Translations under genes and position numbers: made by a program | Part shown: piece by piece, positions 25,877 to 52,678 of the stretch | Numbering within the stretch: position 1 is the stretch's first letter | Layout of the letters: each line of letters opens with the position of its first letter | NCBI RefSeq assembly: GCF_003790525.1 | Contig: NZ_CP033635.1 | Length of the DNA stretch: 64,000 bases | Direction: 5' to 3' (one strand) | Origin: Escherichia coli | GTDB lineage: Bacteria > Pseudomonadota > Gammaproteobacteria > Enterobacterales > Enterobacteriaceae | The notes under the pieces: generated by a model | Databases searched by the model: none | The model's input: the letters and a program-made list of their open reading frames with translations, nothing else | What the model was told of the DNA's origin: nothing

Positions 25877-25890
25877 TCCCCTCTGGGGAG
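25877..25890. repeat. left copy of island-flanking direct repeat (att core) tcccctctggggag
   Basis: Identical 14-mer recurs at 52665..52678. Confidence 0.75.
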
Positions 25891-26018
25891 GATCTATTGA
25901 TATCAACTGATTTCAACAGAGCTAACCCCTCCCCCTTTAACCCCCTTTGAAATAAGATATCATCAGAAATTCCTTTTCTCTGGGGGTCAATCATATTCCA
26001 TGAACATCAAGATGATTT

Positions 26019-26040
26019 TGGGGGCTATTCTGGGGGCTAC
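26019..26040 (+). repeat. tandem TGGGGGCTAT / TGGGGGCTAC repeats (candidate integrase arm-type sites), left end
   Basis: Two copies 12 bp apart just upstream of int; a related TGGGGGTCAA at 25981; the same pair recurs at the right end. Confidence 0.55.
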
Positions 26041-26056
26041 ATTTCAGGGGTAACTC

Positions 26057-27250
26057 ATGCCACTTACTGTTCGACAAATTGAGTCGGCTAAACCTGCTGA
26101 CAAGGATTACAAACTTTCTGACGGTCAGGGCCTTTATCTTCTTGTCAAAAAATCCGGTGCCCGTTACTGGAATCTGAAGTACCGGTTTGCCGGTAAGGAA
26201 AAGAAACTGGTGATTGGTGTCTATCCTGACATATCACTGGCTCAGGCTCGTCAGAAGCGGGATGAAGCACGTAAACTTCTGGCTGAAGGTAAAGATCCGT
26301 CGTATGAAAAACAGGCGCGAAAACTTGCCATCAGGGAAAGTATGGCCTGCACATTTCGCACCATTGCAGAGGAGCTGCTTACTCATATGGCACGTCGATG
26401 GACAACAGGTTACCAGGCAGACCAGCGTGCAAGACTTGAAAATCATGTTTTCCCTGCTCTTGGAAACCGTCCTGTGACCGGGATCCGCCCCATGGAAATA
26501 CTGAACGTCCTGAGGACTATAGAAGAACAGGGAAAACTTGAAGCACTGCGTAAAACACGCCAGCTCTGTGCGCAGGTTTTTGATTATGCCATAGCAACAG
26601 GGCGTGCAACCGTTAATCCGGCATCGACACTCAGCGGGGTACTGCTTCCTCCTGAAAAACAACAGCGCAGGACGCTTTCTGAAGAACAGATAGGAGCTTT
26701 CATGTATCAGATAACGGCTTCCGGAAATCTGATGTCGCTGGCAACGCGGATGCTGGTTCTGACCGCTGTTCGCACCGGAGAACTGCGACTGGCAACCTGG
26801 GACGAAATTAATTTCACGGAGGCCCTGTGGGTTATTCCGAAAGAAAGAATGAAAATGCGACGACCGCACGTTGTGCCGCTTTCACGGCAGGTACTGGCGT
26901 TACTGGAGGAGATAAAAACACGCACTGAATCGCGTAATTCCGCCTTTATTATTCCTGGTGCATTCAGAAAAGATCTCCCGCGAAACCGCAAGTGTATCAA
27001 TGAATTCCTTGAGCAGTCAGGCTGGCATGCCCTGACAACAGCCCACGGATTTCGTCATACCTTCAGCACCATTCTCCATGACCATGATTTCAGCTCAGCC
27101 TGGATTGAACTCCAGCTTGCTCATGTTGATAAAAACGTCATGCGTGGCACTTATAACCATGCGCAATATCTGGATGGACGTCGTGAAATGATGCAGTGGT
27201 ACGCTGATTACATTGATTCACTTATGGAGAAAAACGTAAAAACGAAATAA
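26057..27250 (+). CDS. tyrosine site-specific integrase, phage P4 / CP4-57 IntA type
   Basis: 397-aa ORF with P4-integrase-like N-terminus and C-terminal catalytic HGFRHTF ... HxxR ... Y motifs. Confidence 0.9.
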   Translation: MPLTVRQIESAKPADKDYKLSDGQGLYLLVKKSGARYWNLKYRFAGKEKKLVIGVYPDISLAQARQKRDEARKLLAEGKDPSYEKQARKLAIRESMACTFRTIAEELLTHMARRWTTGYQADQRARLENHVFPALGNRPVTGIRPMEILNVLRTIEEQGKLEALRKTRQLCAQVFDYAIATGRATVNPASTLSGVLLPPEKQQRRTLSEEQIGAFMYQITASGNLMSLATRMLVLTAVRTGELRLATWDEINFTEALWVIPKERMKMRRPHVVPLSRQVLALLEEIKTRTESRNSAFIIPGAFRKDLPRNRKCINEFLEQSGWHALTTAHGFRHTFSTILHDHDFSSAWIELQLAHVDKNVMRGTYNHAQYLDGRREMMQWYADYIDSLMEKNVKTK

Positions 27251-27258
27251 GCCATCAC

Positions 27259-27308
27259 CCCCACCAACCACAGCGGTTGGTGGGGAGTTAACTACCATTT
27301 GTATTTTT
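27259..27308 (+). terminator. possible terminator after int
   Basis: 11-bp stem ccccaccaacc/ggttggtgggg with 5-nt loop; the T-run lies about 18 nt downstream, so it is non-canonical. Confidence 0.4.
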
Positions 27309-27616
27309 TGATTTCTGCCTTCAGGCGACATACTCAATATCATCTGATGAGCGAAGATACCCCACCCAAAATGATGGTAGCTTCACATCGTCATTTTCAT
27401 ATAGCAGCACACTGCTGTTCTGACCTCGTAGTCACATTTCTACAGCATCATTACCAGTCAGGCTGATTGCTCCTCATTGAAAGAATGAATCCATGACTAA
27501 CACAAAAATAGCTCTGGCCGGCTGTTACCGGTGTGAGAAGAAACTTGATACAAACTGCCGTGGGCTTTATTCTTGGAGAACTATAAGTTTTTCCAGATTT
27601 ACAACAGATTCAGCAT

Positions 27617-28672
27617 ATGAACAGATTACGCTTTGAAGTGAAGAATAATCAGGGCTGCTTCATTTTCCCGGAAACCTGGTATGAATCACTACTGGAGAAG
27701 TTTAACGAACTGCTTGACTCCTTTGACGAGGATGAGATCAGCGACAGGTCTTATATCAATGCCCTGAAGCGTATCACACAACAGGAACCGGATTTTATTG
27801 ATGCGTATGCATACATGGCATATGCCTTTCTGGAGCAGGAGACACCGCGAAAAGCGCTGAATATTGCACTCAAAGGACTGGCGGCAGGTAACCGACTGAT
27901 ACCTGAAGGTTTCACCGGTGAAATCAGCTGGTTACATCCGGAAAACAGGCCCTTTCTGAATGCCCTTTACGCCGCCATCCTCGCGAATGTGCACCTGCAG
28001 CATCATCAGAATGCTGTCATGCTCATTGATAAAATTCTGGCTTACAATCCTTCAGATAATCCGGGAGCACGCTGGTTACTGGGACCGGAACTGTTGCGTT
28101 CTGGTGACCATGAACGGGCTCTCTGTGTTCTCCGGCAGTATGCAGATGAATTTTCGCCTTACTGGTATGAGCTTGGTCTTCTGCATTTTATTAATGGAGA
28201 GCCGGTGAAGGCAGCGACAGCTTTCCGGCGCGGCTTTGCAGAAAATACTTATATCGCGGAGATTCTATGCGGAAATCTGTACCCCTTCCCGCTTGCCCTT
28301 TGGCATGATTATTCATCTGAGCCGGATACAGCCAGACAGTATTATGAAACATTCTGCCCGTTATGGGGAAAATATCCCGAGGCATTGTTATTTGTTAACT
28401 GGCTCTACAACCAGTCTGGCGTACTGAGCGAACGGGCTGAATTCATGAAGTGTGCTGAAATGCTGTTAAGGGCAGATGATCAGGAAATGAATGAAAGCAT
28501 TTTTCAGCAGCGGGAGCTCTTACGGGAAAGAATTGATGATCGTCTTTCTGAGGAAATCGTTCAGAAATTACGGACATTGAACGGGGAGGAGATCTGGCCC
28601 TGGATGTTACCGTTTTCCGGAGAACTGATCCCCGCAGACATTTGCTTTCAGAACAGTCTGAAATATCAGTAA
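27617..28672 (+). CDS. hypothetical protein, TPR-like helical repeats by eye
   Basis: 351-aa ORF; repeated A/L/Y-rich helical segments; no family recognised. Confidence 0.6.
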   Translation: MNRLRFEVKNNQGCFIFPETWYESLLEKFNELLDSFDEDEISDRSYINALKRITQQEPDFIDAYAYMAYAFLEQETPRKALNIALKGLAAGNRLIPEGFTGEISWLHPENRPFLNALYAAILANVHLQHHQNAVMLIDKILAYNPSDNPGARWLLGPELLRSGDHERALCVLRQYADEFSPYWYELGLLHFINGEPVKAATAFRRGFAENTYIAEILCGNLYPFPLALWHDYSSEPDTARQYYETFCPLWGKYPEALLFVNWLYNQSGVLSERAEFMKCAEMLLRADDQEMNESIFQQRELLRERIDDRLSEEIVQKLRTLNGEEIWPWMLPFSGELIPADICFQNSLKYQ

Positions 28673-28773
28673 TATCTGCACCAGGATGCCATTCCGGGGT
28701 CAGTAAGGATCTTCCCCCTGACCTGGACAAATGTAATGAAACTCAGCTAAGCCCCAGAAGAGCAGGCATATAG

Positions 28774-29154
28774 TCAACCGAGGTCGCTGCAATAAACCAT
28801 CGCGCTTTGATTCCCCCGATGAAGAGGTGACTGGCAGCGACTTCCTGAGCGACGACTTGTCTTTCCATCAATAGCGACTACCTGAGAAGATAAAACAGGA
28901 AGGACTTCTGAACCCCATCGCCGGAACGCAGCTTCAAACTGCTCAGGGACAATCAGCCCAAAAAGACGGGCGAATGTATCATGGGAAGGTATGCCATTTT
29001 TTAGAGGTAAAAAACTGGCGGAGCCACTCAATGCGTTGCCTGCCCAGAGCTCAATTTCCTGAAAATTATCCGCACCGACCAGCACACCACAAACGGCAAT
29101 GGTCAATGTATCAACCAGAGTGTGCCTGACTTGTCCAGGGCTGACAGGGATCAT
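28774..29154 (-). pseudogene. ISAs1-family (H-repeat type) transposase N-terminal fragment
   Basis: DTLTIAVCGVLVGADNFQEIELWAGN...GIPSHDTFARLF...VAIDGKT resembles the N-terminus of ISAs1/YhhI-type transposases; only ~126 codons, C-terminal DDE region absent. Confidence 0.6.
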
Positions 29155-29299
29155 GTATTGAGATGAATATATCGGTAACCGGCGGTATATGAGACATAAT
29201 ATATCCCTTTGATAAAAAAGGTTATGTTGACATATTTATCCTGCATGTCACGTATCATTATTTTTCATGCGATTGCCCTGCGGTTACCACCGCTCACAG

Positions 29300-29404
29300 T
29301 TAGTAAAGGACTGGGCGGAAGTGGTCAATATAAGGTTGCATTACCTTCCTCCTTATAGTCCGAATCTGAATCCGATTGAACGGATGTGGAAAAATGCTGC
29401 TTAA
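29300..29404 (+). pseudogene. IS630-family transposase C-terminal remnant
   Basis: Reading frame ending ...YLPPYSPNLNPIERMWKNAA* matches the conserved DDE-proximal YSP(D/E)LNPIE motif of IS630/Tc1 transposases; no upstream ORF. Confidence 0.55.
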
Positions 29405-29716
29405 TAGTATTGATGTTCATCTTTATGCCTCTAAAAGAAAGCATAAGATCACAACAGGCTCAGCAGGTCAATCACTCTATTTTTGTTCAAAAAACGTTCA
29501 TGATCTTGCCCTACCCAATTTTGTGGGTAAGGATATGCGATGAAATTCTCCTTGCAGTTTAATACAACCTTTCCATATTAAGCGGCAGTATTACCTGCCA
29601 GTCAGGATAATTTTACACCTAATGTTAGTTAAAATTTGTGCAACTTGAAACAATAATACTACAGTATCCACTATCGTCAGCACACCTCAAATACTATTTT
29701 TTATGAAACGTTTATT

Positions 29717-30373
29717 TTATAAATCATTATCAATCAAACTCAGGAATGTATCTCTGGCATAATTACCAACGATGTTGGTTGTTATCGCATCAAGACTACC
29801 ACCAACGATTCCTCCTACAACAGGAACAAACTTTGACATATTAATAACACCAGTAGCACCTGTTTTTGTAAGCAGTCTGAAACCGACTGCCTTATTTATC
29901 TTTACAATAATATCTTTACTAATACATCTAATTGCATTTGTTGTCAACTTTTGTCCTATCTGAATTCCTGCTTCCTTCAAAATATCTTTCGCAGCATTAC
30001 CTACAAGACAGGTATAAACAATAGTTCTGACTTTATCATCACGAATATCCTGGCCACACATGATCGCAATAGATGCAACCATCCTGACCTGAATGAAAAG
30101 GACACTTGAAATATTGGTCGGTATAGTTACTGGTAATGTAATAATTCCTCCAAGACCAGTAAGAAAACCTGATGTGGCTGACTTGGTATTTTGCCATCGA
30201 ATAAGGCTATTTATCTGTTCTTTTAAACTACTACCCGTTTTCAGATAACTTTCCGCAAGACTATGTGCCGTATCAATTCCTGGGATACCAATACCATCGA
30301 TGGATTTTTCATAAGCGTAATCCAGAAATTTTATGATTTTTGATGGCGTGAGAATATTTTCATTATCAGTCAT
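29717..30373 (-). CDS. hypothetical protein, possibly EcsC-family; glycine-rich hydrophobic segments
   Basis: ORF trimmed to first internal ATG (MTDNENIL); motifs TSGFLTGLGGIITLPVTIP and VPVVGGIVGG; AT-rich by eye; family assignment from memory only. Confidence 0.55.
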   Translation of the reverse strand: MTDNENILTPSKIIKFLDYAYEKSIDGIGIPGIDTAHSLAESYLKTGSSLKEQINSLIRWQNTKSATSGFLTGLGGIITLPVTIPTNISSVLFIQVRMVASIAIMCGQDIRDDKVRTIVYTCLVGNAAKDILKEAGIQIGQKLTTNAIRCISKDIIVKINKAVGFRLLTKTGATGVINMSKFVPVVGGIVGGSLDAITTNIVGNYARDTFLSLIDNDL

Positions 30374-30464
30374 ACAACAAAACACCTAAAAATTTCACGA
30401 TCACTTTCTAAAAACTATCTCCGACAGATATCGGAACACCAGTATTATCACCAATTAAATAATA

Positions 30465-30656
30465 TTATTTTTTGAGAAACAATTGTATTGCTCTGGCAAA
30501 AAGATTTTCTGTAATTGTAGCCTTACGTTTATAAATAACTTTCTCTCCACACACAGGACATTCATAAAATCCTGCTGTACAATTCATATGAATAATAGTT
30601 TTACTCCATTGACAATTTGTACAGATAAATGTAATGGGTGGACAGGGAAAAATCAT
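30465..30656 (-). CDS. small zinc-ribbon protein (two Cys pairs)
   Basis: ORF trimmed to internal ATG (MIFPCPPITFICTNCQ...ECPVCGEK); CxxC-type pairs; sits between the 117-aa and EcsC-like genes on the same strand. Confidence 0.45.
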   Translation of the reverse strand: MIFPCPPITFICTNCQWSKTIIHMNCTAGFYECPVCGEKVIYKRKATITENLFARAIQLFLKK

Positions 30657-30746
30657 TGGCTCACACTCTCGATATATAAATAACACTTACAGGGACATGT
30701 AAATATTTTCGATTTATCCCTATAAAAATAACTTCACCTCCAGTAA

Positions 30747-31100
30747 TCAATTCAGTTCTGTAAGACGATCGATTATTTTACGTAGTTCATCTGCAGAATC
30801 ACATGTATCCAGTGAAATTTTTATTCTAAAATTCTTTAACCAATTAGCAGCCTCCTGATCTTCACGCCATAAACGCTCCCCGCTCCAATCCCCCCTAAAA
30901 CATAGAGCAGCAATAGCCAATCCTCTGCATGCTGGCCGATTATGCTCAGATGTATTATTTTGGTTATAAAAATCGTTAATTCTTTCTACCGGAGATGATT
31001 TTATTTTATCCCACACATTGAAATTAGCTTTTTTCATCGTTTCAGCAGCAGCATTAGAAGCAAGCTTACCGAATCCCATTATAGCATCCCAAAATCCCAT
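30747..31100 (-). CDS. hypothetical protein (117 aa)
   Basis: ATG start with AAGGTG RBS; no recognisable family; AT-rich. Confidence 0.5.
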   Translation of the reverse strand: MGFWDAIMGFGKLASNAAAETMKKANFNVWDKIKSSPVERINDFYNQNNTSEHNRPACRGLAIAALCFRGDWSGERLWREDQEAANWLKNFRIKISLDTCDSADELRKIIDRLTELN

Positions 31101-31312
31101 ATATCACCTTATGCTATATAATATCTAAATGAGTATCTAATCTTTTAGAACCACTATTTGGACAATGGTTTTACGCCACTTACATCTGGTACAAATGAAT
31201 GTAACCGGGGGCTGAGGAAGTGCCATGAAGGTACGTGTCTGTTGTATTAAACTATCAAATCAGACCACACGCTGCGATTTTGAATTTAACAACGTGTAGT
31301 CAGATATTACAT

Positions 31313-32062
31313 TCAGAAGCTGTATGTAGCACCTAACGTAAATTCGTTACTTCTGACATCAACAGAGGATTTATATGTATCCTGCCCGTCTTCATACGTC
31401 AGGGTTGAATCACCTGCATCAAGATAGCGATAAGCAAGGTCAAGACTGAAATCCGGGGTGACCTCATATTTCACGCCAACACCAAGGCTCCATGCGAAAT
31501 TGTTATCATATCCCGAGTAATGTAATGAAGAAGCATCACTTACTTCACCTGATTTATTCCAGGAGGTATCGGTGTATGTTGCCTTATGATGTACCCGCGC
31601 ATAACCCAGTCCGGCTGATACCCACGGAGTGAAAGCACTGCTGTTTCTGAAATCATAATACGTGTTCACCATCAGGGTATTCACGCTGAGCCTGTTTTGT
31701 GTGTCTTCCTTCCAACCATTATCTCCAGACGGGGACTCCCATGTATCCAGTGGATAGCGGGAATTCGCAGAGCCGCGACCATAGAATTCAACTTCCGTGC
31801 GTACAGGGACATTGTAGTGCTGATAAAAGTCGTATCCCACCGCAAGGCCAGCACCAAAAACCGTATCGCTCTTGTCACCGCCTTTATACTTATAAACATC
31901 ATCCCCAAAGTCCTGACTAAAGCGCTGATTATCCTGAGTGATAACAGATGCACCAGCCTTACCCGTGATATAGAAACCGGTTTTATCCGCATCTGCCAGC
32001 GTCAGCGTTGAAAACGTACCGGTAAGCGCAGCTACCGCAGTGAGTGCCAGTAACTTTTTCAC
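31313..32062 (-). CDS. outer-membrane beta-barrel protein, OmpA/opacity-like; possibly Hra/Tia/Hek adhesin-invasin family
   Basis: Signal peptide MKKLLALTAVAALTGTFSTLTLA, alternating amphipathic strands, C-terminal ...GATYSF with terminal aromatic; GTG start; ~249 aa as for Tia/Hek-type proteins. Confidence 0.6.
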   Translation of the reverse strand: MKKLLALTAVAALTGTFSTLTLADADKTGFYITGKAGASVITQDNQRFSQDFGDDVYKYKGGDKSDTVFGAGLAVGYDFYQHYNVPVRTEVEFYGRGSANSRYPLDTWESPSGDNGWKEDTQNRLSVNTLMVNTYYDFRNSSAFTPWVSAGLGYARVHHKATYTDTSWNKSGEVSDASSLHYSGYDNNFAWSLGVGVKYEVTPDFSLDLAYRYLDAGDSTLTYEDGQDTYKSSVDVRSNEFTLGATYSF

Positions 32063-32377
32063 AATCCACCTCTCCTGATGTTTCCTTCAGACATATGAAT
32101 TTGTCCAATTTTAAGACGGATTTCTCATTGGTAAAATGAATTGTACAGATCGTATCGATCGACAAAGTCGATCGTTAAGCAGAAAAAAGATTTATCGTCA
32201 GCGAAGATTTGTTTATGGAAATGACTGAAAAAACGGGTTAAAAAACAGACTGTTCTGTCCATGTGAAACGGGAAGTGACGGGATAAGACGTTATGTGAGG
32301 ATTGTTACGGGAAATGCTGTTTTACGTTGTTAAAATGTAACTCCGCAATGAAACTATCCCCTGTGGAGGTCCTGTAA

Positions 32378-32731
32378 ATGAACAAAGCACTCTCTTCCAT
32401 TCTGCTCATCTTCGGTATCTGTGCATCATCACTGGCCGCTGAAAAAAACAGAACCGTCAGTTTTCCACGATGTGAAGTACAGGAAGCATCAGCTGTTGCA
32501 GCCAGCGTCAAACGGGACTATCTCCAGAAACAGGTATTTCAGTGGAAAGATGATCAGGAAATTCTCGGTCAGCAGCGTCCCGTTGTCTGGGTGAATCTTC
32601 GTGAGCCGGTAAATAAAGGTGATAATGTCATCACAGTGCATCTCACTGCCCGTGGAAAGAAAGCAGATATTCAGTATCGTGTGCGCGTTGACTGTAAGAA
32701 CGGAAGTGCTACCTGGCAACGCCAGGGATGA
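32378..32731 (+). CDS. small secreted hypothetical protein
   Basis: 117-aa ORF with N-terminal signal peptide (ILLIFGICASSLAA). Confidence 0.45.
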   Translation: MNKALSSILLIFGICASSLAAEKNRTVSFPRCEVQEASAVAASVKRDYLQKQVFQWKDDQEILGQQRPVVWVNLREPVNKGDNVITVHLTARGKKADIQYRVRVDCKNGSATWQRQG

Positions 32732-32777
32732 ACGGGTGAAGTTGAATACAGAGCCCGAACGAACGGGCTCTCCATAC

Positions 32778-33350
32778 TCATCGTATATAACTGAATGCGG
32801 TGATGACGTGTTTCACCCCCGCCACGCGACTGGCGATATCAGCAGCAGCCTGTCCTTCCTTCTCTGTAACTCTCCCCATAAGAAAGACTTCACCATTCTC
32901 CGTCAGTACCTTTACATCTGACAGTTTCACCCTGCTGCTCTTCAGTAACTGTGCCCGGATTTTTGTGGTCAGCCACGCATCAGTAGCTGTTTTATCAGCC
33001 CGAAGTGGTTTTCCCGTCCTTATTTCATTCCATACCTGCACAGTCCCCTCAACACCATCTGCAATCTGACGGGCTTTTTCACCTGCACTACGGTCTGGTG
33101 CCTGCCCTGTCAGCAGTACAGTGCCCTGGTATGCTGTGACGATGATTCGCGCATCCCCCCTGAGTTGTGAGTCCTTCGACAGCGCACGGCTGACCCTTGC
33201 TTCCAGAATTTCATCATCAATCTGCGTTCCCGCACTTCGGGGGTCCACTGACACTTTAGTACCCACAGCAGCCGTACCGACCAGCGCAGCGGCAACACAA
33301 CCCTGTAACAGCAACAGAGTCGAAAGAAAAGGCAGAAACCAGCGTTGCAT
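32778..33350 (-). CDS. BON-domain lipoprotein, DolP (YraP) paralog
   Basis: Trimmed to MQRWFLPFLSTLLLLQGC lipobox start with GGAGG RBS; sequence closely parallels DolP/YraP (two BON domains, ...ASRVAGVKHVITAFSYIR). Confidence 0.75.
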   Translation of the reverse strand: MQRWFLPFLSTLLLLQGCVAAALVGTAAVGTKVSVDPRSAGTQIDDEILEARVSRALSKDSQLRGDARIIVTAYQGTVLLTGQAPDRSAGEKARQIADGVEGTVQVWNEIRTGKPLRADKTATDAWLTTKIRAQLLKSSRVKLSDVKVLTENGEVFLMGRVTEKEGQAAADIASRVAGVKHVITAFSYIR

Positions 33351-33673
33351 GGCAGAATCCTCCACGGTCTGATATCCGGAATTTCGCAGTATGACGGCAG
33401 GAATCAGCCATCACAGATACCACAAGCTTCAGAGAGTAACGAAAACGTTAAAGGAAACGGAAGTGCCTGAATGTAAAGAACGGGGAACCACACAGGGTAT
33501 GGACAAACATAATAACAATAACAGGATGAAAATATTGAATAAAAAATAAAAACCGAGACATCATCATTTGCAGTAATAGCCACCTCCTTACCGAAAAGTG
33601 TGAGTTGCCGGACATTTTTTAAACGCATGATAAGGTCTGATGATACAGTCACCCTGCAACCAGGAGGTACATC

Positions 33674-33967
33674 ATGCGTATACGTGTTTTTGGTTACCGG
33701 CACTGCCCTTCAGTCCATCGCATCATGCATCACGCAACGCGAATCCCCGATGAAATGGAACCGGATGTTGTGTTTATTGATGTCGCGAAGCACAGTGTGA
33801 CGCTGCGGGATATGGCTGACCGTGCAGGCTGCCCGGTGGATAACTTCCCGTGTGTGTTTGTTGATGATGTCTATCTGGAGCCCCTCCACCAGAACCGGGC
33901 AAACCGCACTTTACATACTGCTGAATATTTATTACCGGATATGGACAATCGCTTTCATTCGGGATAA
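33674..33967 (+). CDS. hypothetical protein, possibly thioredoxin-fold / glutaredoxin-like
   Basis: 97-aa ORF with strong AGGAGG RBS; MRIRVFGYRHCPSV... layout resembles a glutaredoxin-type N-terminus with single Cys; weak. Confidence 0.4.
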   Translation: MRIRVFGYRHCPSVHRIMHHATRIPDEMEPDVVFIDVAKHSVTLRDMADRAGCPVDNFPCVFVDDVYLEPLHQNRANRTLHTAEYLLPDMDNRFHSG

Positions 33968-34091
33968 AAAATACTGCGCGTTCCTGGTTTATTTTGCGTT
34001 GCTGTCATGACGTGTTTGCCTTCATTGCCGGGATCGCGCACTTTTTGTTATAACTCCCCGGAGGACACTGTCTGTAATCAGATGGAAACCT

Positions 34092-34526
34092 TTATCTCAG
34101 TGATGTCCTGGTTAATACAGAATACTGCCCCGGACCAAGTAACATAATGGCAATCCCCCCCATGAAATACAGCATTTCATTTTCAAGCCCCCACGCCCCT
34201 ACTTCAGTCAGTGTGAAAAACTTCCCTGTTCCGACCAGAAGCGTGGCAACAATCAGTGTCAGCGCATAAATCAGAGCAGCAGGTCTGGTAAATATCCCAA
34301 GAATGATAAGTACCGGAGCCACGATTTCACCAATATACACACCATAGGCAATAAATCCTGGCAAACCAGCATCCTGCAACATTGATATAATCCAGTTGAC
34401 ACCGTGCTCTATTTTGGCCACACCATGGAACAGCATCAATATACCAAATGTCAGTCTCAGCAACAGAAGACCTGTATCCGGGTAGTCTGTCAGTCTGGTA
34501 AAGAACATATTTATTCTTGCTGGCAT
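34092..34526 (-). CDS. DoxX-family inner membrane protein
   Basis: 144-aa ORF, 4 hydrophobic helices, DoxX-like pattern. Confidence 0.65.
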   Translation of the reverse strand: MPARINMFFTRLTDYPDTGLLLLRLTFGILMLFHGVAKIEHGVNWIISMLQDAGLPGFIAYGVYIGEIVAPVLIILGIFTRPAALIYALTLIVATLLVGTGKFFTLTEVGAWGLENEMLYFMGGIAIMLLGPGQYSVLTRTSLR

Positions 34527-35126
34527 AAAAAACCTCGTTAAACGATAACAGATAATGAAGAAACTATTATCGTTGAGTCGACACCATCAATTGACCAGAT
34601 ATTTCTGACATTCATAATCAAAAAATTTGACAAAACTGTAAACGTTCGCTTTTTATACCAACACAGAATCCACTCAGTCACACAACCTGTATGCGTCATT
34701 TCCTGCTGTTATTTAAAAAATTTCTCACGTAACAGACATTTCAAAAAAACACTAAAAAATACCAGAACAATTAAGATAATATTACGATCAAATAAGTAAA
34801 AGTCTTTTGTCTGTTATTTTTATTTTCTGTGATTACTGTCATTCTTTCACCACTTTAATTAACATCGCATAATAATCCGGGAGGTGGATAAGATATGAAA
34901 ATTAACTATCCTTTACTGGCGCTGGCGTTGAATTATTACCTGTAGAGCTCACTCCGGATGAGCAGAAAGAACCGATGGTGGCTCTTACTCCACTTTTATC
35001 CACTCCTTCACACAGCACTGTCAGTGCAGGTGCCTGAAAGATCTCGTTCCGTCACGGTAAAATGACGCTGGAAAATTCTTCACCAGAACTGCTCACTGTG
35101 TTAATTCGTGAACTGACCTGGGGGGA

Positions 35127-35285
35127 ATGCGTGGTACCCTGCTGTACGGACTAATCGGAACCTGTCGGTTGAACGGTATCGATCCGGAAGCGTATCTGCG
35201 CCATATCCTGAACGTTCTACCGGAATGGCCTTCCTGCATGGTTGATGAACTCCTGCCATGGAATATGGTGCTCCCATTGGGGTAA
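35127..35285 (+). pseudogene. IS66-family transposase C-terminal remnant
   Basis: MRGTLLYGLIGTCRLNGIDPEAYLRHILNVLPEWPSCMVDELLPWN matches the conserved C-terminal tail of IS66-family TnpC; upstream frames are disrupted. Confidence 0.6.
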
Positions 35286-35411
35286 GCGTCAATACGGCGT
35301 TCGCTTAACTTAACACTTACTTTCAAAGCCTGATATCTGTCCTACGCTTTTCCTCAATACCACATCGCCAGCAGGAAACAACCTAATGCCTGTGTTGGGG
35401 TCTGAATTACT

Positions 35412-35430
35412 AATGATAATCATTTGCATT
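35412..35430. promoter_or_regulatory. Fur box upstream of the sitA-like gene
   Basis: AATGATAATCATTTGCATT, close to the Fur consensus GATAATGATAATCATTATC. Confidence 0.65.
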
Positions 35431-35433
35431 GTG

Positions 35434-35471
35434 TATAGCTTATGCTATAAAACATAGCCGTTGCTATGTTT
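35434..35471. promoter_or_regulatory. tandem MntR operators upstream of the sitA-like gene
   Basis: AAACATAGC-cgtt-GCTATGTTT, a perfect match to the MntR box architecture, preceded by TATAGC-ttat-GCTATA. Confidence 0.7.
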
Positions 35472-35503
35472 GTTCTAATTTTACTCACTATAGGTACTGA
35501 ATT

Positions 35504-40441: not shown

Positions 40442-40473
40442 GAAAAGGCATTTACACAGAATCCTAAACAGGC

Positions 40474-46046: not shown

Positions 46047-46931
46047 ATGTCATTCAGCCATTCTTCCCTTTCCGCACACGTAAAATCACATCTGACCTTT
46101 CTTCCTGAAGAAATACGCCAGAAAATCCTTGAATATCTTCACAGCGTCATTCAGTACGAACCCGTGATTGGCATTATGGGTAAATCCGGTGCCGGAAAAA
46201 GCAGCCTGTGCAATGCCATTTTTCAGTCCCGTGTCTGCGCCACGCATCCACTGAACGGCTGCACCCGTCAGGCTCATCGTCTTACCTTTCAGCCTGGTGA
46301 ACGCAGAATGACGCTCGTCGATCTGCCCGGCACTGGCGAAACACCACAGCATGATCAGGAATACCGGGCACTTTACCGTCAGTTACTGCCCGAACTGGAT
46401 CTGATTATCTGGATCCTGCGTGCTGATGAACGTGCGTATGCTGCCGACATCGCCATGCATCAGTTTTTACTGAATGAAGGTGCCGATCCCTCGCGTTTTC
46501 TGTTTGTTCTCAGCCATGCTGATCGCATCCACCCGGCTGAAGAATGGAACAGCCAGAGCAACACGCCATCCCGTCAGCAGGAACTCTCACTGGCAACAGT
46601 AACAGCCCGGGTGGCAACCCTGTTCCCTTCATCATTTCCGGTACTCCCCATAGCTGCCCCTGCAGGCTGGAATCTTCCGGCATTTGTGTCACTGATGATC
46701 CACGCCCTGCCACCACAGGCAACCAGCACGGTTTATTCGCATATCCGGAATGAAAAGCGCACTGCGCAGGATCAGCAACACGCACAGCAGGCTTTTGGTG
46801 ACGCCATCGGCCAGAGCTTTGACGCGGCCATTGCCCGGTTCAGCTTTCCGGCCTGGATGCTGCAGCTTCTGCGTAAAGCCCGTGATCGCATTATCCGCCT
46901 GCTGGTCACACTGTGGGATCGCCTGTTCTGA
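46047..46931 (+). CDS. YfjP/YeeP/YkfA-family GTPase (CP4-type island protein)
   Basis: 294-aa ORF with P-loop GKSGAGKSS and DLPG switch motif. Confidence 0.8.
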   Translation: MSFSHSSLSAHVKSHLTFLPEEIRQKILEYLHSVIQYEPVIGIMGKSGAGKSSLCNAIFQSRVCATHPLNGCTRQAHRLTFQPGERRMTLVDLPGTGETPQHDQEYRALYRQLLPELDLIIWILRADERAYAADIAMHQFLLNEGADPSRFLFVLSHADRIHPAEEWNSQSNTPSRQQELSLATVTARVATLFPSSFPVLPIAAPAGWNLPAFVSLMIHALPPQATSTVYSHIRNEKRTAQDQQHAQQAFGDAIGQSFDAAIARFSFPAWMLQLLRKARDRIIRLLVTLWDRLF

Positions 46932-47116
46932 ATTTCCCCGCTTTTTGACCGGCACAGACGATGACCAGGGAACGCATTTCCGGCGGCTTTACCACAATGC
47001 TGAAGGGCTTTTGGTAAACCTCATTCATTTCATCCATCAGGCAGCGTCTTCTCCGGGAGATGCGGCTTTTTCATTGATTACGTCAGTCAGTCTTAACCAC
47101 TGATAAGGAGCAAAGT

Positions 47117-47935
47117 ATGCGATTAGCCAGTCGTTTTGGTTATGCGAACCAGATACGCCGTGACCGTCCGCTGACACATGAAGAGCTGATGCACCATGTG
47201 CCCGGGATTTTCGGGGAGGATAAGCACACCTCCCGGAGCCGGAACTATACATACATCCCCACCATCACCGTGCTGGAAAGCCTGCAACGGGAAGGCTTTC
47301 AGCCGTTCTTTGCCTGCCAGACCCGCGTGCGTGACCCGGGACGCCGGGGATACACAAAGCACATGCTGCGTCTGCGCCGTGACGGGGAGATAAACGGACA
47401 GCATGTCCCTGAAATCATCCTGCTCAACTCCCATGACGGCACCTCCAGCTACCAGATGCTGCCGGGTTACTTCCGGTTCGTGTGTCAGAACGGATGTGTC
47501 TGTGGTCAGTCTCTCGGAGAGGTGCGTGTCCCGCACCGGGGAGACGTGGTGGACAGGGTCATTGAAGGGGCTTACGAGGTGGTGGGCGTGTTTGACCGGA
47601 TAGAGGAAAAGCGTGATGCCATGCAGTCACTGATTTTACCACCACCGGCTCGTCAGGCGCTGGCACAGGCCGCCCTGACTTACCGTTATGGTGACGAACA
47701 TCAGCCCGTCACCACCGCCGACATTCTGACACCACGACGCCGGGAGGATTACGGTCAGGACCTGTGGAGTGCTTATCAGACCATCCAGGAGAATATGCTG
47801 AAAGGCGGGATTTCCGGTCGCAGTGCAAAAGGAAAACGTATCCATACCCGGGCCATTCACAGCATTGATACCGATATAAAACTCAACCGCGCATTGTGGG
47901 TGATGGCAGAAACGCTGCTGGAGAGCATGCGCTGA
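47117..47935 (+). CDS. DUF932-family protein (YfjQ-like)
   Basis: 272-aa ORF in the canonical position after the GTPase. Confidence 0.65.
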   Translation: MRLASRFGYANQIRRDRPLTHEELMHHVPGIFGEDKHTSRSRNYTYIPTITVLESLQREGFQPFFACQTRVRDPGRRGYTKHMLRLRRDGEINGQHVPEIILLNSHDGTSSYQMLPGYFRFVCQNGCVCGQSLGEVRVPHRGDVVDRVIEGAYEVVGVFDRIEEKRDAMQSLILPPPARQALAQAALTYRYGDEHQPVTTADILTPRRREDYGQDLWSAYQTIQENMLKGGISGRSAKGKRIHTRAIHSIDTDIKLNRALWVMAETLLESMR

Positions 47936-48016
47936 TGCCGTTTCCCTGAGTGAGGGAATCATTCAGCTTTCGTTCCTGAAAAACACACATTTATTTGTTA
48001 TTTAAGGAGTTATCTC

Positions 48017-48457
48017 ATGAAAACCGTTTCTCAGAATACCCCCACAATTTATTCAGCTACAACACCAGAGAATAATCCGCCTCAGTTGGTTGCCAGCCTC
48101 GTCCCTGATGAACAGCGCATCAGCTTCTGGCCGCAGCATTTTGGCCTCATTCCACAGTGGGTGACCCTGGAGCCCCGTGTCTTCGGCTGGATGGACCGTC
48201 TGTGCGAAGACTACTGCGGTGGTATCTGGAATCTGTACACCCTGAACAACGGCGGCGCATTTATGGCCCCCGAACCGGATGATGATGATGACGAAACATG
48301 GGTACTGTTCAATGCCATGAACGGTAACCGCGCTGAAATGAGCCCGGAAGCCGCCGGCATTGCTGCCTGTCTGATGACGTACAGTCATCATGCCTGTCGT
48401 ACGGAGTGTTATGCCATGACGGTTCATTATTACCGTCTGCGGGATTACGCCCTGTAG
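48017..48457 (+). CDS. antirestriction protein, KlcA/ArdB family (YfjX/YeeR-like)
   Basis: 146-aa ORF with acidic stretch (PEPDDDDDE) and pattern typical of CP4-island antirestriction proteins. Confidence 0.7.
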   Translation: MKTVSQNTPTIYSATTPENNPPQLVASLVPDEQRISFWPQHFGLIPQWVTLEPRVFGWMDRLCEDYCGGIWNLYTLNNGGAFMAPEPDDDDDETWVLFNAMNGNRAEMSPEAAGIAACLMTYSHHACRTECYAMTVHYYRLRDYAL

Positions 48458-48511
48458 CATCCGGAATGCAGCGCCATTATGCGCATCATTGACTGAAAGG
48501 GGGCCGGAACA

Positions 48512-48988
48512 ATGCAACAGATTTCCTTTCTGCCCGGAGAAATGACAACCAGAGAGCGCAGCCTCATTCAGCGGGCCCTGAAAGCCCTGGACCGCCATCT
48601 TCATGAACCCGGCGTGGCCTTCACCTCCACCCGTGCGGCACGGGAATGGCTGATTCTGAACATGGCGGGACTGGAGCGGGAAGAGTTCCGGGTGCTGTAC
48701 CTGAACAACCAGAATCAGCTGATTGCCGGTGAAACCCTCTTCACCGGCACCATCAACCGCACGGAAGTCCATCCCCGGGAGGTGGTTAAACGCGCCCTGT
48801 ACCACAATGCCGCTGCCGTGGTGCTGGCACACAATCATCCGTCCGGTGAAGTCACACCCGGTAAGGCAGACCGGCTTATCACTGAACGTCTGGTACAGGC
48901 ACTGGCCCTGGTGGATATCCGGGTGCCGGACCATCTGATAATCGGTGGCAGCCGGGTGTTCTCCTTTGCCGAACACGGTCTGCTTTAA
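48512..48988 (+). CDS. RadC-like JAB/MPN domain protein (YfjY/YeeS/YkfG-like)
   Basis: 158-aa ORF with JAMM-like HNHPSGEVTPGKAD motif. Confidence 0.8.
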   Translation: MQQISFLPGEMTTRERSLIQRALKALDRHLHEPGVAFTSTRAAREWLILNMAGLEREEFRVLYLNNQNQLIAGETLFTGTINRTEVHPREVVKRALYHNAAAVVLAHNHPSGEVTPGKADRLITERLVQALALVDIRVPDHLIIGGSRVFSFAEHGLL

Positions 48989-49077
48989 TCCGTCACCGTC
49001 ACAACCACCTTCATATTGTCACTTCAGTTTCTCTTTCTCAGCTGTTTCTCACTTTCACATTCAGGAGGACTGTTCTC

Positions 49078-49299
49078 ATGAAAATCGTCACCCGTGGTGA
49101 AGCCATGCGCGTTCACCGTCAGTATCCGTCATCCCGTCTTTTTCCGTTCTGCACCGGTAAGTACCGCTGGCACGGCGGCACTGAGGCGTATACCGGTCGT
49201 GAAGTGCAGGATATCCCCGGCGTACTGGCCGTGTTTGCCGAACGCCGCAAGGACAGTTTTGGCCCGTATGTCCGGCTGATGAGCGTCACCCTGAACTGA
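49078..49299 (+). CDS. DUF987-family small protein (YeeT/YpjJ-like)
   Basis: 73-aa ORF, MKIVTRGEAMRVHRQYP...; canonical position upstream of the antitoxin. Confidence 0.65.
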   Translation: MKIVTRGEAMRVHRQYPSSRLFPFCTGKYRWHGGTEAYTGREVQDIPGVLAVFAERRKDSFGPYVRLMSVTLN

Positions 49300-49309
49300 G
49301 TCAGTGGAG

Positions 49310-49960
49310 ATGCTGATGAGCAGCATTATCACCACCACCGTGTATACGCTGAATGAACTTTCCGCCACAGCACGGGAAAAAGCCCGCGGCTGGTACCGTC
49401 AGCATCATGCTGACAGCCGCTGGTATGAAAACGTGTATGAGGACTTCAGGGCGGTCTGTGAGATTGTCGGGATTGTCCTCCGCCAGCGTGTTATCCGGCT
49501 CAGCAGCGGCAGGTTTATGGAAGAGCCGTGCATCTGGTTCAGCGGATTCTGCAGCCAGGGGGACGGAGCCTGTTTTGAAGGGCGCTGGCACTGGCAGCCG
49601 GCAACAGCCAGGCGAGTCCGGGAATATGCCCCGCAGGACCGTGAGCTTCATCGTATCACGGATGCCCTGCAGGCGGTGCAGAAGCATAACTTCCGGCAGT
49701 TACAGGCTGAAATCCGTCACCGGGGACGCTACTGCCATCCGTACAGCATGGATATCACCGTCACCCGGGACAGCCCGACCGGACAGGCAATGACAGCCGG
49801 CGCGGAAACCGTTGTCTGTGACGCCCTGCGGGACCTGGCCTTCTGGTTATACAGTCAACTGGAAAACGAGTACGACTGGCTGACCTCAGATGACGCCGTG
49901 GATGAGGCGCTTCTCATCAACGGATACACCTTCACCGAAGCCGGTCTGCGCGCCGGCTGA
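49310..49960 (+). CDS. hypothetical protein (~216 aa)
   Basis: ORF in a GC-rich segment between DUF987 and the antitoxin; start ambiguous (GTG 49304, ATG 49310 or 49316); no family recognised. Confidence 0.5.
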   Translation: MLMSSIITTTVYTLNELSATAREKARGWYRQHHADSRWYENVYEDFRAVCEIVGIVLRQRVIRLSSGRFMEEPCIWFSGFCSQGDGACFEGRWHWQPATARRVREYAPQDRELHRITDALQAVQKHNFRQLQAEIRHRGRYCHPYSMDITVTRDSPTGQAMTAGAETVVCDALRDLAFWLYSQLENEYDWLTSDDAVDEALLINGYTFTEAGLRAG

Positions 49961-50010
49961 CCCGTCATTGTTAAAACCATTCTTAACCGATTATCAGTGA
50001 GGACTTTATC

Positions 50011-50388
50011 ATGTCAGACACACTCACCGGGACAACGCATCCCGACGACAACAGCGACCGCCCCTGGTGGGGGCTGCCCTGCACCGTGACGCCCTGTTTC
50101 GGTGCCCGTCTGGTGCAGGAGGGTAACCGCCTGCATTACCTTGCAGACCGCGCCGGCATCAGAGGCCGGTTCAGCGACGCAGATGCGTACCACCCGGACC
50201 AGGCCTTTCCGCTGCTGATGAAACAGCTGGAACTCATGCTCACCAGTGGTGAACTCAGTCCCCGCCATCAGCATACCGTCACACTGTATGCGAAAGGGCT
50301 GACCTGCGAAGCCGACACCCTCGGCAGTTGTGGTTACGTGTATATCGCCATTTATCCGACACCGGCAACACCCGGAACCACCGCATAA
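50011..50388 (+). CDS. type IV antitoxin, CbeA/YeeU/YfjZ family
   Basis: 125-aa ORF; ...[20 protein letters not shown]...[19 protein letters not shown] matches the YeeU family. Confidence 0.85.
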
Positions 50389-50434
50389 CCCCGGACAGCA
50401 CTTCTTTATCACCACCTGTTACAGAGTACTTAAG

Positions 50435-50809
50435 ATGAAAACATTCCCCGACACACATGTACGGGCAACATCGCGCTGCCCGTCTCCGGTTGAAATCTGG
50501 CAGACACTGCTCACCCGGTTGCTGGACCAGCACTACGGCCTCACGCTGAATGACACACCGTTCGCCGATGAACGTGTGATTGAACAGCATATTGAGGCAG
50601 GTATTTCACTGTGTGATGCGGTGAACTTTCTCGTGGAAAAATACGCACTGGTGCGTACCGACCAGCCGGGATTCAGTGCCTGCACCCGCTCTCAGTTAAT
50701 CAACAGCATTGATATCCTCCGGGCCCGCCGGGCAACCGGCCTGATGACCCGCAGCCACTACCGAATGGTGAGCAACATCACCCTGGGTAAACACTGTGAG
50801 GTGAAATGA
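50435..50809 (+). CDS. type IV toxin, CbtA/YeeV/YpjF family (cytoskeleton-binding)
   Basis: Trimmed to [48 protein letters not shown]..., near-identical in pattern to CbtA. Confidence 0.85.
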
Positions 50810-51297
50810 TGAAACTGTCCCTGACGCTGGAAGCAGACAGCGTTAACGTCCGGGCACTGAACATGGGGCGCATTGTCGCTGACGTCGATGGTGTTAATCT
50901 CGCTGAACTGATTAACGTGGTCTGCGATAACGGCTGTTCCCTTCGTGTTGTTGATGAATCTGACCGGACCTCAGCAGACTGCATGCCACCATTTACTGCC
51001 CTTACCGGCATACGCTGCAGTACCGCACATATCACGGAACAGGACAATGCCTGGCTGTACTCGCTGTCGCATCAGACGAATGACAACGGCGAATCAGAAT
51101 GGATTCATTTTACAGGCAGCGGATATCTGTTACGTACTGATGCGTGGTCGTACCCGGCTCTGCGGCTTAAACGCCTGGGGCTGTCAAAAACCTTCCGCCG
51201 TCTGGTTGTCACACTTATCCGGCGTTATGGCGTCAGTCTCATTCATCTGGATGCCGGCGCTGAATGTCTGCCGGGTTTACCCACTTTCGACTGGTAA
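50806..51297 (+). CDS. hypothetical protein downstream of toxin (YeeW-position protein)
   Basis: 163-aa ORF, ATGA overlap with the toxin stop. Confidence 0.5.
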
Positions 51298-51316
51298 CCG
51301 GGACAAAAGACACCGT

Positions 51317-51514
51317 ATGAAATCATTAACCACAGAAACGGCACCGGATATTCTGATTGCGTGGCTGCAGGACAATATCGACTGCGGCTCCGGCATTATC
51401 TTCGACAACGATGAGGATAAAACGGATTCGGCAGCACTGCTGCCCTGTATCGAACAGGCCAGAGCGGATATCCGCACCCTGCGCCACCTGCAGCTTCAGC
51501 ACCAGAACCGGTGA
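51317..51514 (+). CDS. small hypothetical protein (possibly DUF957-type)
   Basis: 65-aa reading frame from internal ATG of ORF 50945..51514 (MKSLTTETAPDILIAWLQDNIDCG...). Confidence 0.4.
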   Translation: MKSLTTETAPDILIAWLQDNIDCGSGIIFDNDEDKTDSAALLPCIEQARADIRTLRHLQLQHQNR

Positions 51515-51609
51515 GTCTCACTCATCATCTCACTCACCACGATTCATTCCCCTGACGCCAGTCCGAATACGGCTGGCGTTTTCATTTATAAACCACAAGG
51601 AAAAATGTA

Positions 51610-52458
51610 ATGTCTGATATCACAATCCCTTATCCGGAAGCGGTCAACGGACATACGGACGTTATCTGCTCCACAGATATCCGGCACGTTGTGACGGTAC
51701 GGAATGAAGCACTGCAACAAACCGAAAGGGTTATCCGGCAACTGGCAGAAATCTCAGCAATGACAGAAAGCATAGGCGGTAAAACGGCGCGGGACTGGGC
51801 CGTGAAACAGGATTTTCGCTGTGGCTGCTGGCTGATGGAAAAACCGGAAACCGCAATGAAAGCCATCACCCGGAACCTTGACCGTGAAATCTGGCGTGAC
51901 CTGATGCAACGCTCCGGGATGCTGAGTCTGATGGATGCACAGGCGCGTGATGAATGGTACCGTTCACAGGAGGACGATAATTTCCCGGAAATCAGCGAAG
52001 CGAATATCCTGAGCACGTCTGAACAACTGCACCGTAACAGGGATGAAATGGCTGAACGGGGCGTCATCAACCTCTTCAGGGGACTGAGCCGGACGCAAAA
52101 CAGCGGGTCACCCTGTAAATTCGGCAGCAAGATTATCCTCAACAACCTGGTGAAATGGGACTGGTGGGGATTTGGTCTGAACCATGGCCCGCAGGCCGGG
52201 CGGCTTGCCGACCTGGAAAGAATGTTGTATCTGTTCAGTGGTAAACCCATACCCGATTACAGGGACAATATCCTCATTCGTCTGGATGAGCACATCCGGT
52301 CCGTTCAGGGTGAAGCGTGTTATGAAGATGAGATGTTCAGCATCAGATACTTCAGGAAAGGCTCTGCGCATATCACGTTTAAACACCCGGAACTGGTGGA
52401 GAAGCTGAATGCTGTTCTGGCGAAACATTATTCGGTAAAGTTCCATTCTTCTGTATAA
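51610..52458 (+). CDS. hypothetical protein (possibly DUF4942-type), last island gene
   Basis: 282-aa ORF; same strand as the downstream glnP. Confidence 0.55.
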   Translation: MSDITIPYPEAVNGHTDVICSTDIRHVVTVRNEALQQTERVIRQLAEISAMTESIGGKTARDWAVKQDFRCGCWLMEKPETAMKAITRNLDREIWRDLMQRSGMLSLMDAQARDEWYRSQEDDNFPEISEANILSTSEQLHRNRDEMAERGVINLFRGLSRTQNSGSPCKFGSKIILNNLVKWDWWGFGLNHGPQAGRLADLERMLYLFSGKPIPDYRDNILIRLDEHIRSVQGEACYEDEMFSIRYFRKGSAHITFKHPELVEKLNAVLAKHYSVKFHSSV

Positions 52459-52583
52459 ACTTACAGATCACGGGTATTGTGTCTCGTCCTGAACAGGGCC
52501 GACAGGTATACTGCATTCGCTGAGCCATTACAGATAATGCCTCAACTGAGTTCAATCTACCTCCATGTACAACAACAATACGA

Positions 52584-52605
52584 TGGGGGCTACATTGGGG
52601 GCTAT
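52584..52605 (+). repeat. tandem TGGGGGCTAC / TGGGGGCTAT repeats (candidate integrase arm-type sites), right end
   Basis: Same motifs and 12-bp spacing as at 26019..26040, same orientation. Confidence 0.55.
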
Positions 52606-52664
52606 ACTTTCAAGTAAAACTGATATAACCAAGATTAAACAATAAGATAGAGAATTTTCACCAT

Positions 52665-52678
52665 TCCCCTCTGGGGAG
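52665..52678. repeat. right copy of island-flanking direct repeat (att core) tcccctctggggag
   Basis: Identical to 25877..25890. Confidence 0.75.

Follow-up and report, generated by a model that had tools for sequence, protein, structure and literature searches.

Islands of the P4-like or CP4 type sit at tRNA or tmRNA genes, as CP4-57 does at ssrA, CP4-6 at thrW, and pathogenicity islands at pheV, pheU, selC and leuX. Pathogenicity islands that carry papGII have been described at two operons, gln (between glnP and glnH) and ula (between ulaE and ulaD), by Biggel et al. (2020, PMC7686366) and Royer et al. (2021, PMC8097792). Here we analyze a stretch of the Escherichia coli contig NZ_CP033635.1, 64,000 nucleotides in full length (hereafter the window), in which an island with its own tyrosine integrase lies between glnH and glnP. 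We propose, with a probability of about 0.82, that this integrase put a CP4/P4-like island into the core of a BoxC/PIT/TMECO repeat in the glnH-glnP spacer; integrase-mediated insertion into BoxC as such we place above 0.8. The island and its gln site are already known (PMC7686366, PMC8097792). In the literature covered, subscription-only papers aside, we found no prior report of the BoxC-core site, of the use of at least ten copies by one integrase, or of insertion into a ulaE palindrome in either orientation; nor was any link to an integrase found for BoxC/TMECO repeats or for the lptG, ycjD, zntA, gcvP, yhfS, sstT, ytfQ, yraQ and yijF loci discussed below.

The window island resembles CP4-type islands in its three-domain integrase, located directly inside the left attachment site (attL), in its AlpA-family gene and short direct repeats, and in a right-hand module of GTPase, DUF932, anti-restriction, RadC and DUF5983/DUF957/DUF4942 genes. 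It differs from them in being without a tRNA gene, in an apparent chromosomal attachment site (attB) that is the core of a dispersed repeat with many sites per genome, and in having a sister clade that occupies a palindrome within a coding sequence in both orientations. The lack of an adjacent tRNA gene beside a P4-class integrase would follow from a target that is a dyad-symmetric stem-loop of a repeat family and not a tRNA gene.

Dispersed intergenic palindromes are also used as safe, multi-copy landing sites by much smaller elements: IS1397 and ISKpn1 target bacterial interspersed mosaic elements, and elements of the IS110/IS621 type target repetitive extragenic palindromes, all being elements of 1-2 kb with DDE or DEDD transposases. 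Here, in contrast, the enzyme is a tyrosine integrase with candidate arm sites, and the islands are 27-116 kb long. Among tyrosine recombinases, Tn916 Int and IntDOT of CTnDOT accept heterologous crossover sequences, and the present family resembles them in that the centers of attL and of the right attachment site (attR) can differ within one genome, carrying either the host or the element base; it departs from them in its strictly conserved half-sites and narrow target, CCCC-N3-GGGGAG, the tolerance of heterology being deduced here from genomes.

The papGII islands occupy the same chromosomal sites, and they are likewise described as flanked by an integrase, distinct in sequence from the integrases of islands at tRNA sites (PMC7686366, PMC8097792). 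The cargo of the window island, unlike theirs, comprises a truncated sit operon and envelope proteins; no fimbrial family was found among the window open reading frames (ORFs) tested and no pap gene in annotated relatives, no direct search for pap having been made. The same two papers call the integrases insertion-site specific, whereas the clade of the window uses multiple sites and its target is identified here as BoxC; in the passages covered for attachment sites and direct repeats (0 occurrences), they give no description of the att sequence (PMC7686366, PMC8097792). Genomic variability was reported to be raised around TMECO repeats by an unclear mechanism, and the same study states that it never found transposase or integrase remnants adjoining them (PMC4666352). 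At odds with the latter statement, the integrase family described here appears to use TMECO/BoxC repeats as attachment sites, and some of the genomic instability reported nearby would thereby gain a concrete explanation.

The chromosomal flanks, the island ends and the integrase lie as follows, in window positions; attP denotes the attachment site of the island, reconstructed from its two ends.

25093..25839, + strand: glnH, binding protein of the glutamine ATP-binding cassette (ABC) transporter, left chromosomal flank (ORF; RefSeq annotation of relatives, WP_000843866.1)
25872..25890, + strand: attL, with a BoxC-like C-rich left stem (CCCTCTCCCC), the loop TCT and GGGGAG; island DNA from 25891
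25891..26056, + strand: P' arm of attP as reconstructed; it has short GATATCAACTGA-like repeats, and a tandem TGGGGGCTA pair at 26019-26027 and 26031-26039
26057..27250, + strand: tyrosine integrase of 397 aa with P4-like architecture (Pfam, PHROG 1), 167 bp inside the left junction
52459..52664, + strand: P arm of the reconstructed attP, with a tandem TGGGGGCTA pair at 52584-52592 and 52596-52604, ending in ...TTTCACCAT
52665..52695, + strand: attR, the 14-mer core (52665-52678) followed by a G-rich BoxC-like remainder (AGGATTAGGGTGAGGGG); fits the TMECO pattern with one deviation
52766-53425, + strand: glnP, right chromosomal flank (ORF; matches the RefSeq annotation in relatives)
53422-54144, + strand: glnQ, right chromosomal flank (ORF; matches the RefSeq annotation in relatives)

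An earlier note on this DNA, made from the sequence by itself, had claimed an integrase-bearing island between glnH and glnP, a direct repeat at both junctions, a P4-type integrase just inside the left one, and no tRNA gene at either. Each of these claims was borne out. The ORFs of glnH, the integrase and glnP stand at the positions given above; the 14-mer TCCCCTCTGGGGAG is found exactly at 25877-25890 and 52665-52678 and nowhere else in the window, even with one mismatch allowed, no chance copies being expected (100 shuffles); and ARAGORN detects no tRNA or tmRNA gene in the entire window. The two copies bracket a span of 26.8 kb between glnH and glnP, within which the GC content swings from 33% to 57%, and the integrated interval is 25891-52678. 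As the note had further expected, joining the left flank, one 14-mer and the right flank recreates an uninterrupted site, identical at 150/150 bp to the glnH-glnP spacer as it stands, unoccupied, in E. coli AF10 and 7/2. The expectation that a reference glnH-glnP region carries the repeat at the junction thus held exactly for AF10 and 7/2, but for K-12 only outside the loop, which reads TAT instead of TCT and is the sole difference within the repeat. The note had also regarded different flanking repeats in other genomes as evidence against its claim; loop bases and loci do vary between genomes, which extends the model rather than refuting it.

The same boundary is found in the wider E. coli population. 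By megablast, the glnH part of the junction probe matched in 5421 of 5426 complete genomes; the match ends exactly at 25890 in every sampled island-free genome, and only 18 genomes continue from it into the integrase. Homology among related islands begins at 25891 (within 3 nt; at nt 16 in the clade of about 80% identity introduced below) and ends at 52664. The 26.8 kb mobile island that splits the glutamine-transport operon is real.

Bachellier (1999) and Hoyne (2000) are said to have given earlier accounts of the BoxC/PIT/TMECO repeats. The defining pattern of these repeats is CCCTCNCCC-N3-6-GGGNGAGGG-N3-GGGNGAGGG (Holder et al. 2015, PMC4666352). The empty site, CCCTCTCCCC-TCT-GGGGAGAGG-ATTA-GGGTGAGGGG, is a hairpin with a 9-bp stem followed by a second G-rich block, and the glnH-glnP copy, CCCTCTCCC-CTCTG-GGGAGAGGA-TTA-GGGTGAGGG, fits the pattern with one deviation, the last G of the second block being A. 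Compared by eye, the five other sites for which both junctions were obtained agree as well: lptG, yhfS and ycjD fit fully, and gcvP and zntA show one small deviation each, in the C-rich stem. Judged by this pattern, the 14-mer is not a unique site: it belongs to a dispersed BoxC/PIT/TMECO repeat, of which it forms the stem-loop core. Four occupied loci presumably correspond to catalogued K-12 TMECO copies (#9 near ycjD-fabI, #11 near gcvP-ygfF, #15 at 75.5 min and #16 at 78 min). BoxC is present in many copies, and many landing sites are therefore possible for the integrase clade.

The island cut point falls after the GGGGAG of the repeat, such that attL retains the C-rich stem, the loop and GGGGAG, and attR retains TCCCC, the loop, GGGGAG and the remainder of the repeat. 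All attL junctions end in ...CCCC-loop-GGGGAG, followed by GAT(C/T)TATT. Of the BoxC hairpin that normally lies behind glnH, a shortened form remains at attL and a stem of only 5 bp at attR. The element common to every occupied site, including the ulaE site described below, is CCCC-N3-GGGGAG, which from its sequence is a dyad-symmetric core of the kind expected for a tyrosine recombinase.

Relatives of the integrase, with at least 80% of the probe covered, are present in 90 of the 5426 complete E. coli genomes and fall into clades of about 99-100%, 91%, 84% and 80% nucleotide identity. The same integrase or its 98.8% variant occupies ten different BoxC copies in E. coli, the glnH site of the window included: the identical protein is found at glnH, lptG, ycjD and yijF, the 98.8% variant at glnH, zntA, gcvP, ycjD, yraQ, sstT and ytfQ, and a 99.9% copy at yhfS. 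Both island ends were fetched at six of these loci in the 98.8-100% clade, namely the window and five sites in complete genomes. The occupied sites, with a slash marking the insertion between two genes, are:

glnH/glnP: both ends in the window, with further left junctions in 23CRST013, GF60 and Br_112_kylling
lptG/yjgR: strain CM2, both ends
yhfS/frlR: strain GPEC1040, both ends
zntA/tusA: strain HCM-27C-1, both ends
gcvP/ygfF: strain TUM9803, both ends
ycjD/fabI: strains PK-F-10122 and 135; both ends fetched for the locus
yijF, yraQ and sstT (insertion downstream of each gene) and ytfQ/ytfR: four further sites from an exact-protein look-up in public assemblies, left junction only (yijF and yraQ named from the Pfam domains and lengths of the neighbors, with no NCBIfam equivalog)

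At all six loci with both ends fetched, a native neighbor gene stands on either side, and the presence of the expected far-side neighbors (yjgR, fabI, ygfF, tusA and frlR) marks these, on comparison with the chromosome, as clean insertions. All left junctions read CCCTC(N)CCCC-loop-GGGGAG/GATCTATTGATATC and all fetched right ends TTTCACCAT/TCCCC-loop-GGGGAG-AGGGTTAGGGTGAGGGG, where the slash is the junction; the orientation relative to BoxC is constant, and the same nucleotide is cut at every locus. Island sizes run from 26.8 kb in the window to about 116 kb, the relatives measuring 40-116 kb. The right end occurs once in each of nine complete genomes with a 98.8-100% integrase. The exact integrase protein of the window is indexed in 1127 blocks of public assemblies, and the five exact integrase sequences looked up are found in 706 to 2917 blocks each; the exact window island is in no complete RefSeq E. 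coli genome, the best match covering 71%. For E. coli epidemiology, the location of an island would need to be reread, since one integrase can put virulence or metabolic cargo at ten loci or more. The landing loci are often inside operons (glnH/glnP, ytfQ/ytfR) or inside a gene (ulaE), and a multi-site integrase with a 13-bp core is a possible integration tool.

Some occupied sites have features of their own. In Br_112_kylling (NZ_CP182371.1), attL lies at 2.568 Mb, at glnH, and the right end at 4,195,319-4,195,543 on the other strand, 1.6 Mb off, an arrangement implying that a large part of the chromosome was inverted and that one breakpoint fell within the island. The occupied BoxC copy downstream of sstT has a 4-nt loop (CGCCCC-TTTT-GGGGAG), which suggests that the integrase tolerates a changed spacing of the half-sites. 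Two of the ten sites, ytfQ/ytfR and glnH/glnP, directly follow the gene for the periplasmic binding protein of an ABC transporter operon; insertion there parts the permease and ATPase genes from their promoter.

The integrase itself has the domains PF13356 (Arm-DNA-bind_3), PF22022 (Phage_int_M) and PF00589 (Phage_integrase), with Pfam E-values of 4.6e-28, 3.7e-28 and 9.2e-20, the last match spanning model positions 3-170 of 172; its match to the NCBIfam integrase domain model PRK09692 is below the cutoff. TGGGGGCTA occurs only four times in the window (0.27 expected), in two tandem pairs with a 12-bp spacing: the pair near the left end of the island lies 128-148 bp inside attL, and the pair near the right end 61-81 bp inside attR. 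These pairs are kept in the 91% and ~80% clades though the surrounding DNA diverges, and they are candidate arm-type sites for the N-terminal domain of the integrase. An AlpA-family helix-turn-helix protein, a candidate excisionase or directionality factor, is encoded at

41208..41444, - strand: AlpA-family protein (tblastn with the family consensus; PF05930 Phage_AlpA, E = 2.6e-10)

Irrespective of cargo and site, the integrase gene of the 99-100% and 91% clades is followed by a gene for a TPR-like protein of 346-351 aa (counterparts in L001, L002, L004-L006, L010, L012-L014 and L105-L125), which does not adjoin the integrase in the other two clades, at 84% and ~80%; this protein may have a part in integration or in controlling it.

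Of the sister clades, the 91% clade is found at glnH only, in 16 complete genomes and in 25/25 contigs read. The target of the 84% clade is CTCCCCG-C-CGGGGAG within the ulaE coding sequence (codons ALPAGE), a near-perfect palindrome, CTCCCCGCCGGGGAG, without BoxC context, at which an identical protein is found in both orientations. The ~80% clade uses the same ulaE site, in one orientation in all ten places read. The insertion point lies at codons 17-22 of ulaE (L008, L009 and L020), and RefSeq annotates there either an N-terminally shortened UlaE of 271 aa or a 303-aa ORF (912 bp) that starts in island DNA, UlaE of K-12 having 284 aa. Insertion into ulaE may affect the use of ascorbate.

Outside E. 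coli, a peptide-pattern search of 100,044 GTDB representative genomes, one per species, returned integrases of at most 55% identity. Among the 51 nearest, 42 have a tRNA gene (for Phe, Arg, SeC, Asn, Gly, Thr or Ser) 160-400 bp upstream, in most cases at about 165-270 bp. No informative attachment sites outside E. coli were obtained from these genomes. By the genomes compared, the clade is a tRNA-independent offshoot of the P4-like family, so far seen only in E. coli.

As a mechanism for the insertion, we propose that attP (...TTTCACCAT-TCCCC-TCT-GGGGAG-GATCTATTGATATC...) would recombine through the integrase with an attB that is the stem-loop core, CCCC-N3-GGGGAG, of the BoxC/PIT/TMECO repeat in the glnH-glnP spacer. 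The two dyad arms (CTCCCC and GGGGAG) would serve as the core-type sites of the integrase, and strand exchange would span the palindrome center, with central mismatches tolerated. The orientation of the island would be set by the outer loop bases, the T-N-T of BoxC permitting one orientation and the G-C-C of ulaE both, since GCC differs from its reverse complement, GGC, only in the middle base and T-N-T is asymmetric. The loops at the two ends bear on the exchange:

CM2: attL loop TTT, attR loop TAT
GPEC1040: attL loop TTT, as in K-12 TMECO #15; attR loop TCT
PKF11: attL loop GCC, non-native; attR loop GGC, native
L126 and L128 against L127, L130, L132, L134 and L135: attL with either center base

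Judged by these differences between the attL and attR loops, exchange seems to have fallen to one side of the palindrome center in some genomes and to the other side in others, which suggests that the center lies within the strand-exchange region; an exchange point on either side is expected if the center is heteroduplex after recombination and then segregates. That the strand-exchange overlap spans the center is, on these loops, a tentative proposal to which we give slightly less than even odds. A model in which every crossover falls right of the loop was considered as well; it fits the 98.8-100% clade and fails for PKF11 and the 91% clade.

Several observations weigh against the proposed insertion or its details. 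The case for integrase-mediated insertion into BoxC is one of comparative genomics throughout, and the assignments of the TGGGGGCTA pairs as arm-type sites and of the AlpA-family protein as a directionality factor are drawn from analogy. The loop pattern predicted for a reciprocal exchange was found in only one of three genomes (PKF11); in EF5-18-41 and CS5L the loop is native at attL and attR alike. In the 91% clade at glnH (L006, L021 and L122-L125), the loop is GCC at both attL and attR, the empty sites reading TCT or TAT; a foreign loop at both ends is not predicted by a simple heteroduplex model without extra steps, and may stem from one ancient event or from several rounds of excision and renewed insertion. 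The 4-nt loop of one occupied site is awkward for a fixed overlap of 7 bp. The window copy, with much of its cargo apparently lost, may perhaps no longer be mobile.

Other explanations of the same junctions have to be set against integrase-mediated insertion. The element could be specific for the single glnH-glnP spacer and have reached its other loci by homologous recombination between BoxC copies or by rearrangement, not through its integrase. The restriction of the 91% clade to glnH, in each of the 25 contigs read, would fit, as would the insertion-site-specific integrases described by Biggel et al. (PMC7686366), and rearrangements do occur, the right end in Br_112_kylling lying 1.6 Mb from the left on the other strand. 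Ten loci nevertheless share the junction nucleotide, and the six whose far end was fetched have native neighbors on both sides; the 13-14 bp of identity between the ends is too short for efficient recombination by RecA; and the ulaE site, which is not a BoxC repeat, has an identical junction anatomy. A single-site element is on this balance unlikely. That the 14-bp repeat is instead a target-site duplication made by a transposase of the island (IS2, or the IS66 and ISAs1 remnants), with the integrase incidental, is highly improbable. Such a duplication would likewise be single in the empty site, and several insertion sequence (IS) elements or remnants do lie inside the island; but these copies are internal, with none at the island ends, and the ends carry motifs of the integrase arm type together with an integrase gene in the canonical position. 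The target, moreover, is not variable, one core sequence being present at every locus, the two repeat copies differ in the loop in CM2, GPEC1040 and PKF11, and neither terminal inverted repeats at the island ends nor insertions into unrelated sequence were seen. Duplications made by IS2 are shorter than 14 bp.

A further alternative shares the enzyme and differs in what it reads: the integrase could recognize a DNA structure, either an extruded BoxC hairpin or cruciform or an intrastrand triplex, as integron integrases act on folded attC sites. The target is a stable hairpin with a 9-bp stem whose loop varies among used sites in sequence and even in length, and triplex formation by TMECO oligonucleotides has been reported in vitro (PMC4666352). 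The ulaE site, however, is without the third BoxC segment and so does not call for a triplex, and the stem arms CCCC and GGGGAG are invariant at all sites, which fits ordinary reading of sequence. The arm-binding architecture of the integrase is the classical one of lambda- and P4-type enzymes acting on duplex DNA, and BoxC copies of the form CCC-loop-GGG were not seen occupied in a small census. Recognition of structure is on this balance unlikely. Broader still is the idea that BoxC/TMECO repeats are dispersed landing pads that co-evolved with integrase islands, the integrase reading their extruded hairpin or triplex and not duplex sequence, and their loops being rewritten by cycles of insertion and excision; if true, such cycles would account for the raised variability near BoxC/TMECO. 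We regard it as doubtful, and as going beyond a sequence-specific, multi-site integrase, which is the likely model.

The integrase-proximal part of the island is related to a larger one: its first 14.6 kb are 99.9% identical to the 92 kb island at the lptG site of CM2, and the identity stops at an Rpn-family nuclease gene and an IS2 copy (37695..40147). The window copy looks like a deletion derivative, apparently shortened beside IS2, in which an intact integrase, both attachment ends and every part required for recombination have been retained. The left cargo block (27617..36570), assigned with NCBIfam and the annotation of the CM2 island, and the region that follows it contain:

27617-28672, + strand: TPR protein, with no family in NCBIfam, PHROGs or PADLOC
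after the TPR gene: ISAs1 remnant
29717-30385, - strand: EcsC-family protein (NCBIfam)
31313-32062: outer-membrane protein
32378-32731: YebF-like protein
32778-33365: DolP-like lipoprotein
34092-34526: DoxX-like protein
35504-36418: sitA, intact
from 36418: sitB stub, the first ~50 codons only, then unrelated sequence and IS66 remnants (35504-36789 region)
37695-38684, - strand: Rpn-family nuclease gene
38874-39284 and 39242-40147, + strand: IS2 ORFs
40474-41253, 41513-42115 and 42418-43149, - strand: three ORFs, in a stretch that in relatives holds genes annotated as "inovirus Gp2 family protein", not assigned to individual ORFs
44723-45946, - strand: 407-aa ORF in the most AT-rich part (33-35% GC)

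The EcsC-family protein is kept beside the integrase end in several clades and has a match (E = 6e-86) to PDC-S29, a candidate defence model of PADLOC. With the sit operon truncated, its iron/manganese uptake function is probably lost; from the sequence, the transporter of the island is probably non-functional. Of the three ORFs in the inovirus-like stretch, 42418-43149 alone has a match, to PHROG 25019, of the replication-initiator-like kind; the other two, among several island ORFs, have no family in NCBIfam, PHROGs or PADLOC, and the 407-aa ORF has no significant match in these three or in Pfam.

The right-hand CP4-type module (46047..52458, + strand) was assigned with NCBIfam and PHROGs, and the same module stands at the right ends of relatives in RefSeq:

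46047-46931, + strand: YeeP-like GTPase
47117-47935, + strand: DUF932 protein
48017-48457, + strand: anti-restriction protein
48512-48988, + strand: RadC
after RadC, + strand: small ORFs, including a putative CbeA/CbtA-type pair, by position only
50806-51297, + strand: DUF5983 protein
51357-51617, + strand: DUF957 protein
51610-52458, + strand: DUF4942 protein, the last island gene

With the island in place, glnP and glnQ lie 26.9 kb from glnH and the glnH promoters. The strand of glnP is also that of the last island gene, and the interval between the two has no terminator-like site, nor was a sigma-70-like promoter found in 51500-52800; read-through into glnP, which the earlier note had thought possible, is therefore plausible, and transcription of glnPQ would on this arrangement probably come by read-through out of the final genes of the island. 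Within the final 1.3 kb of the island a single terminator-like hairpin is present, at 51554-51580 (+ strand), just upstream of the DUF4942 gene, and read-through into glnP would accordingly most simply start downstream of it.

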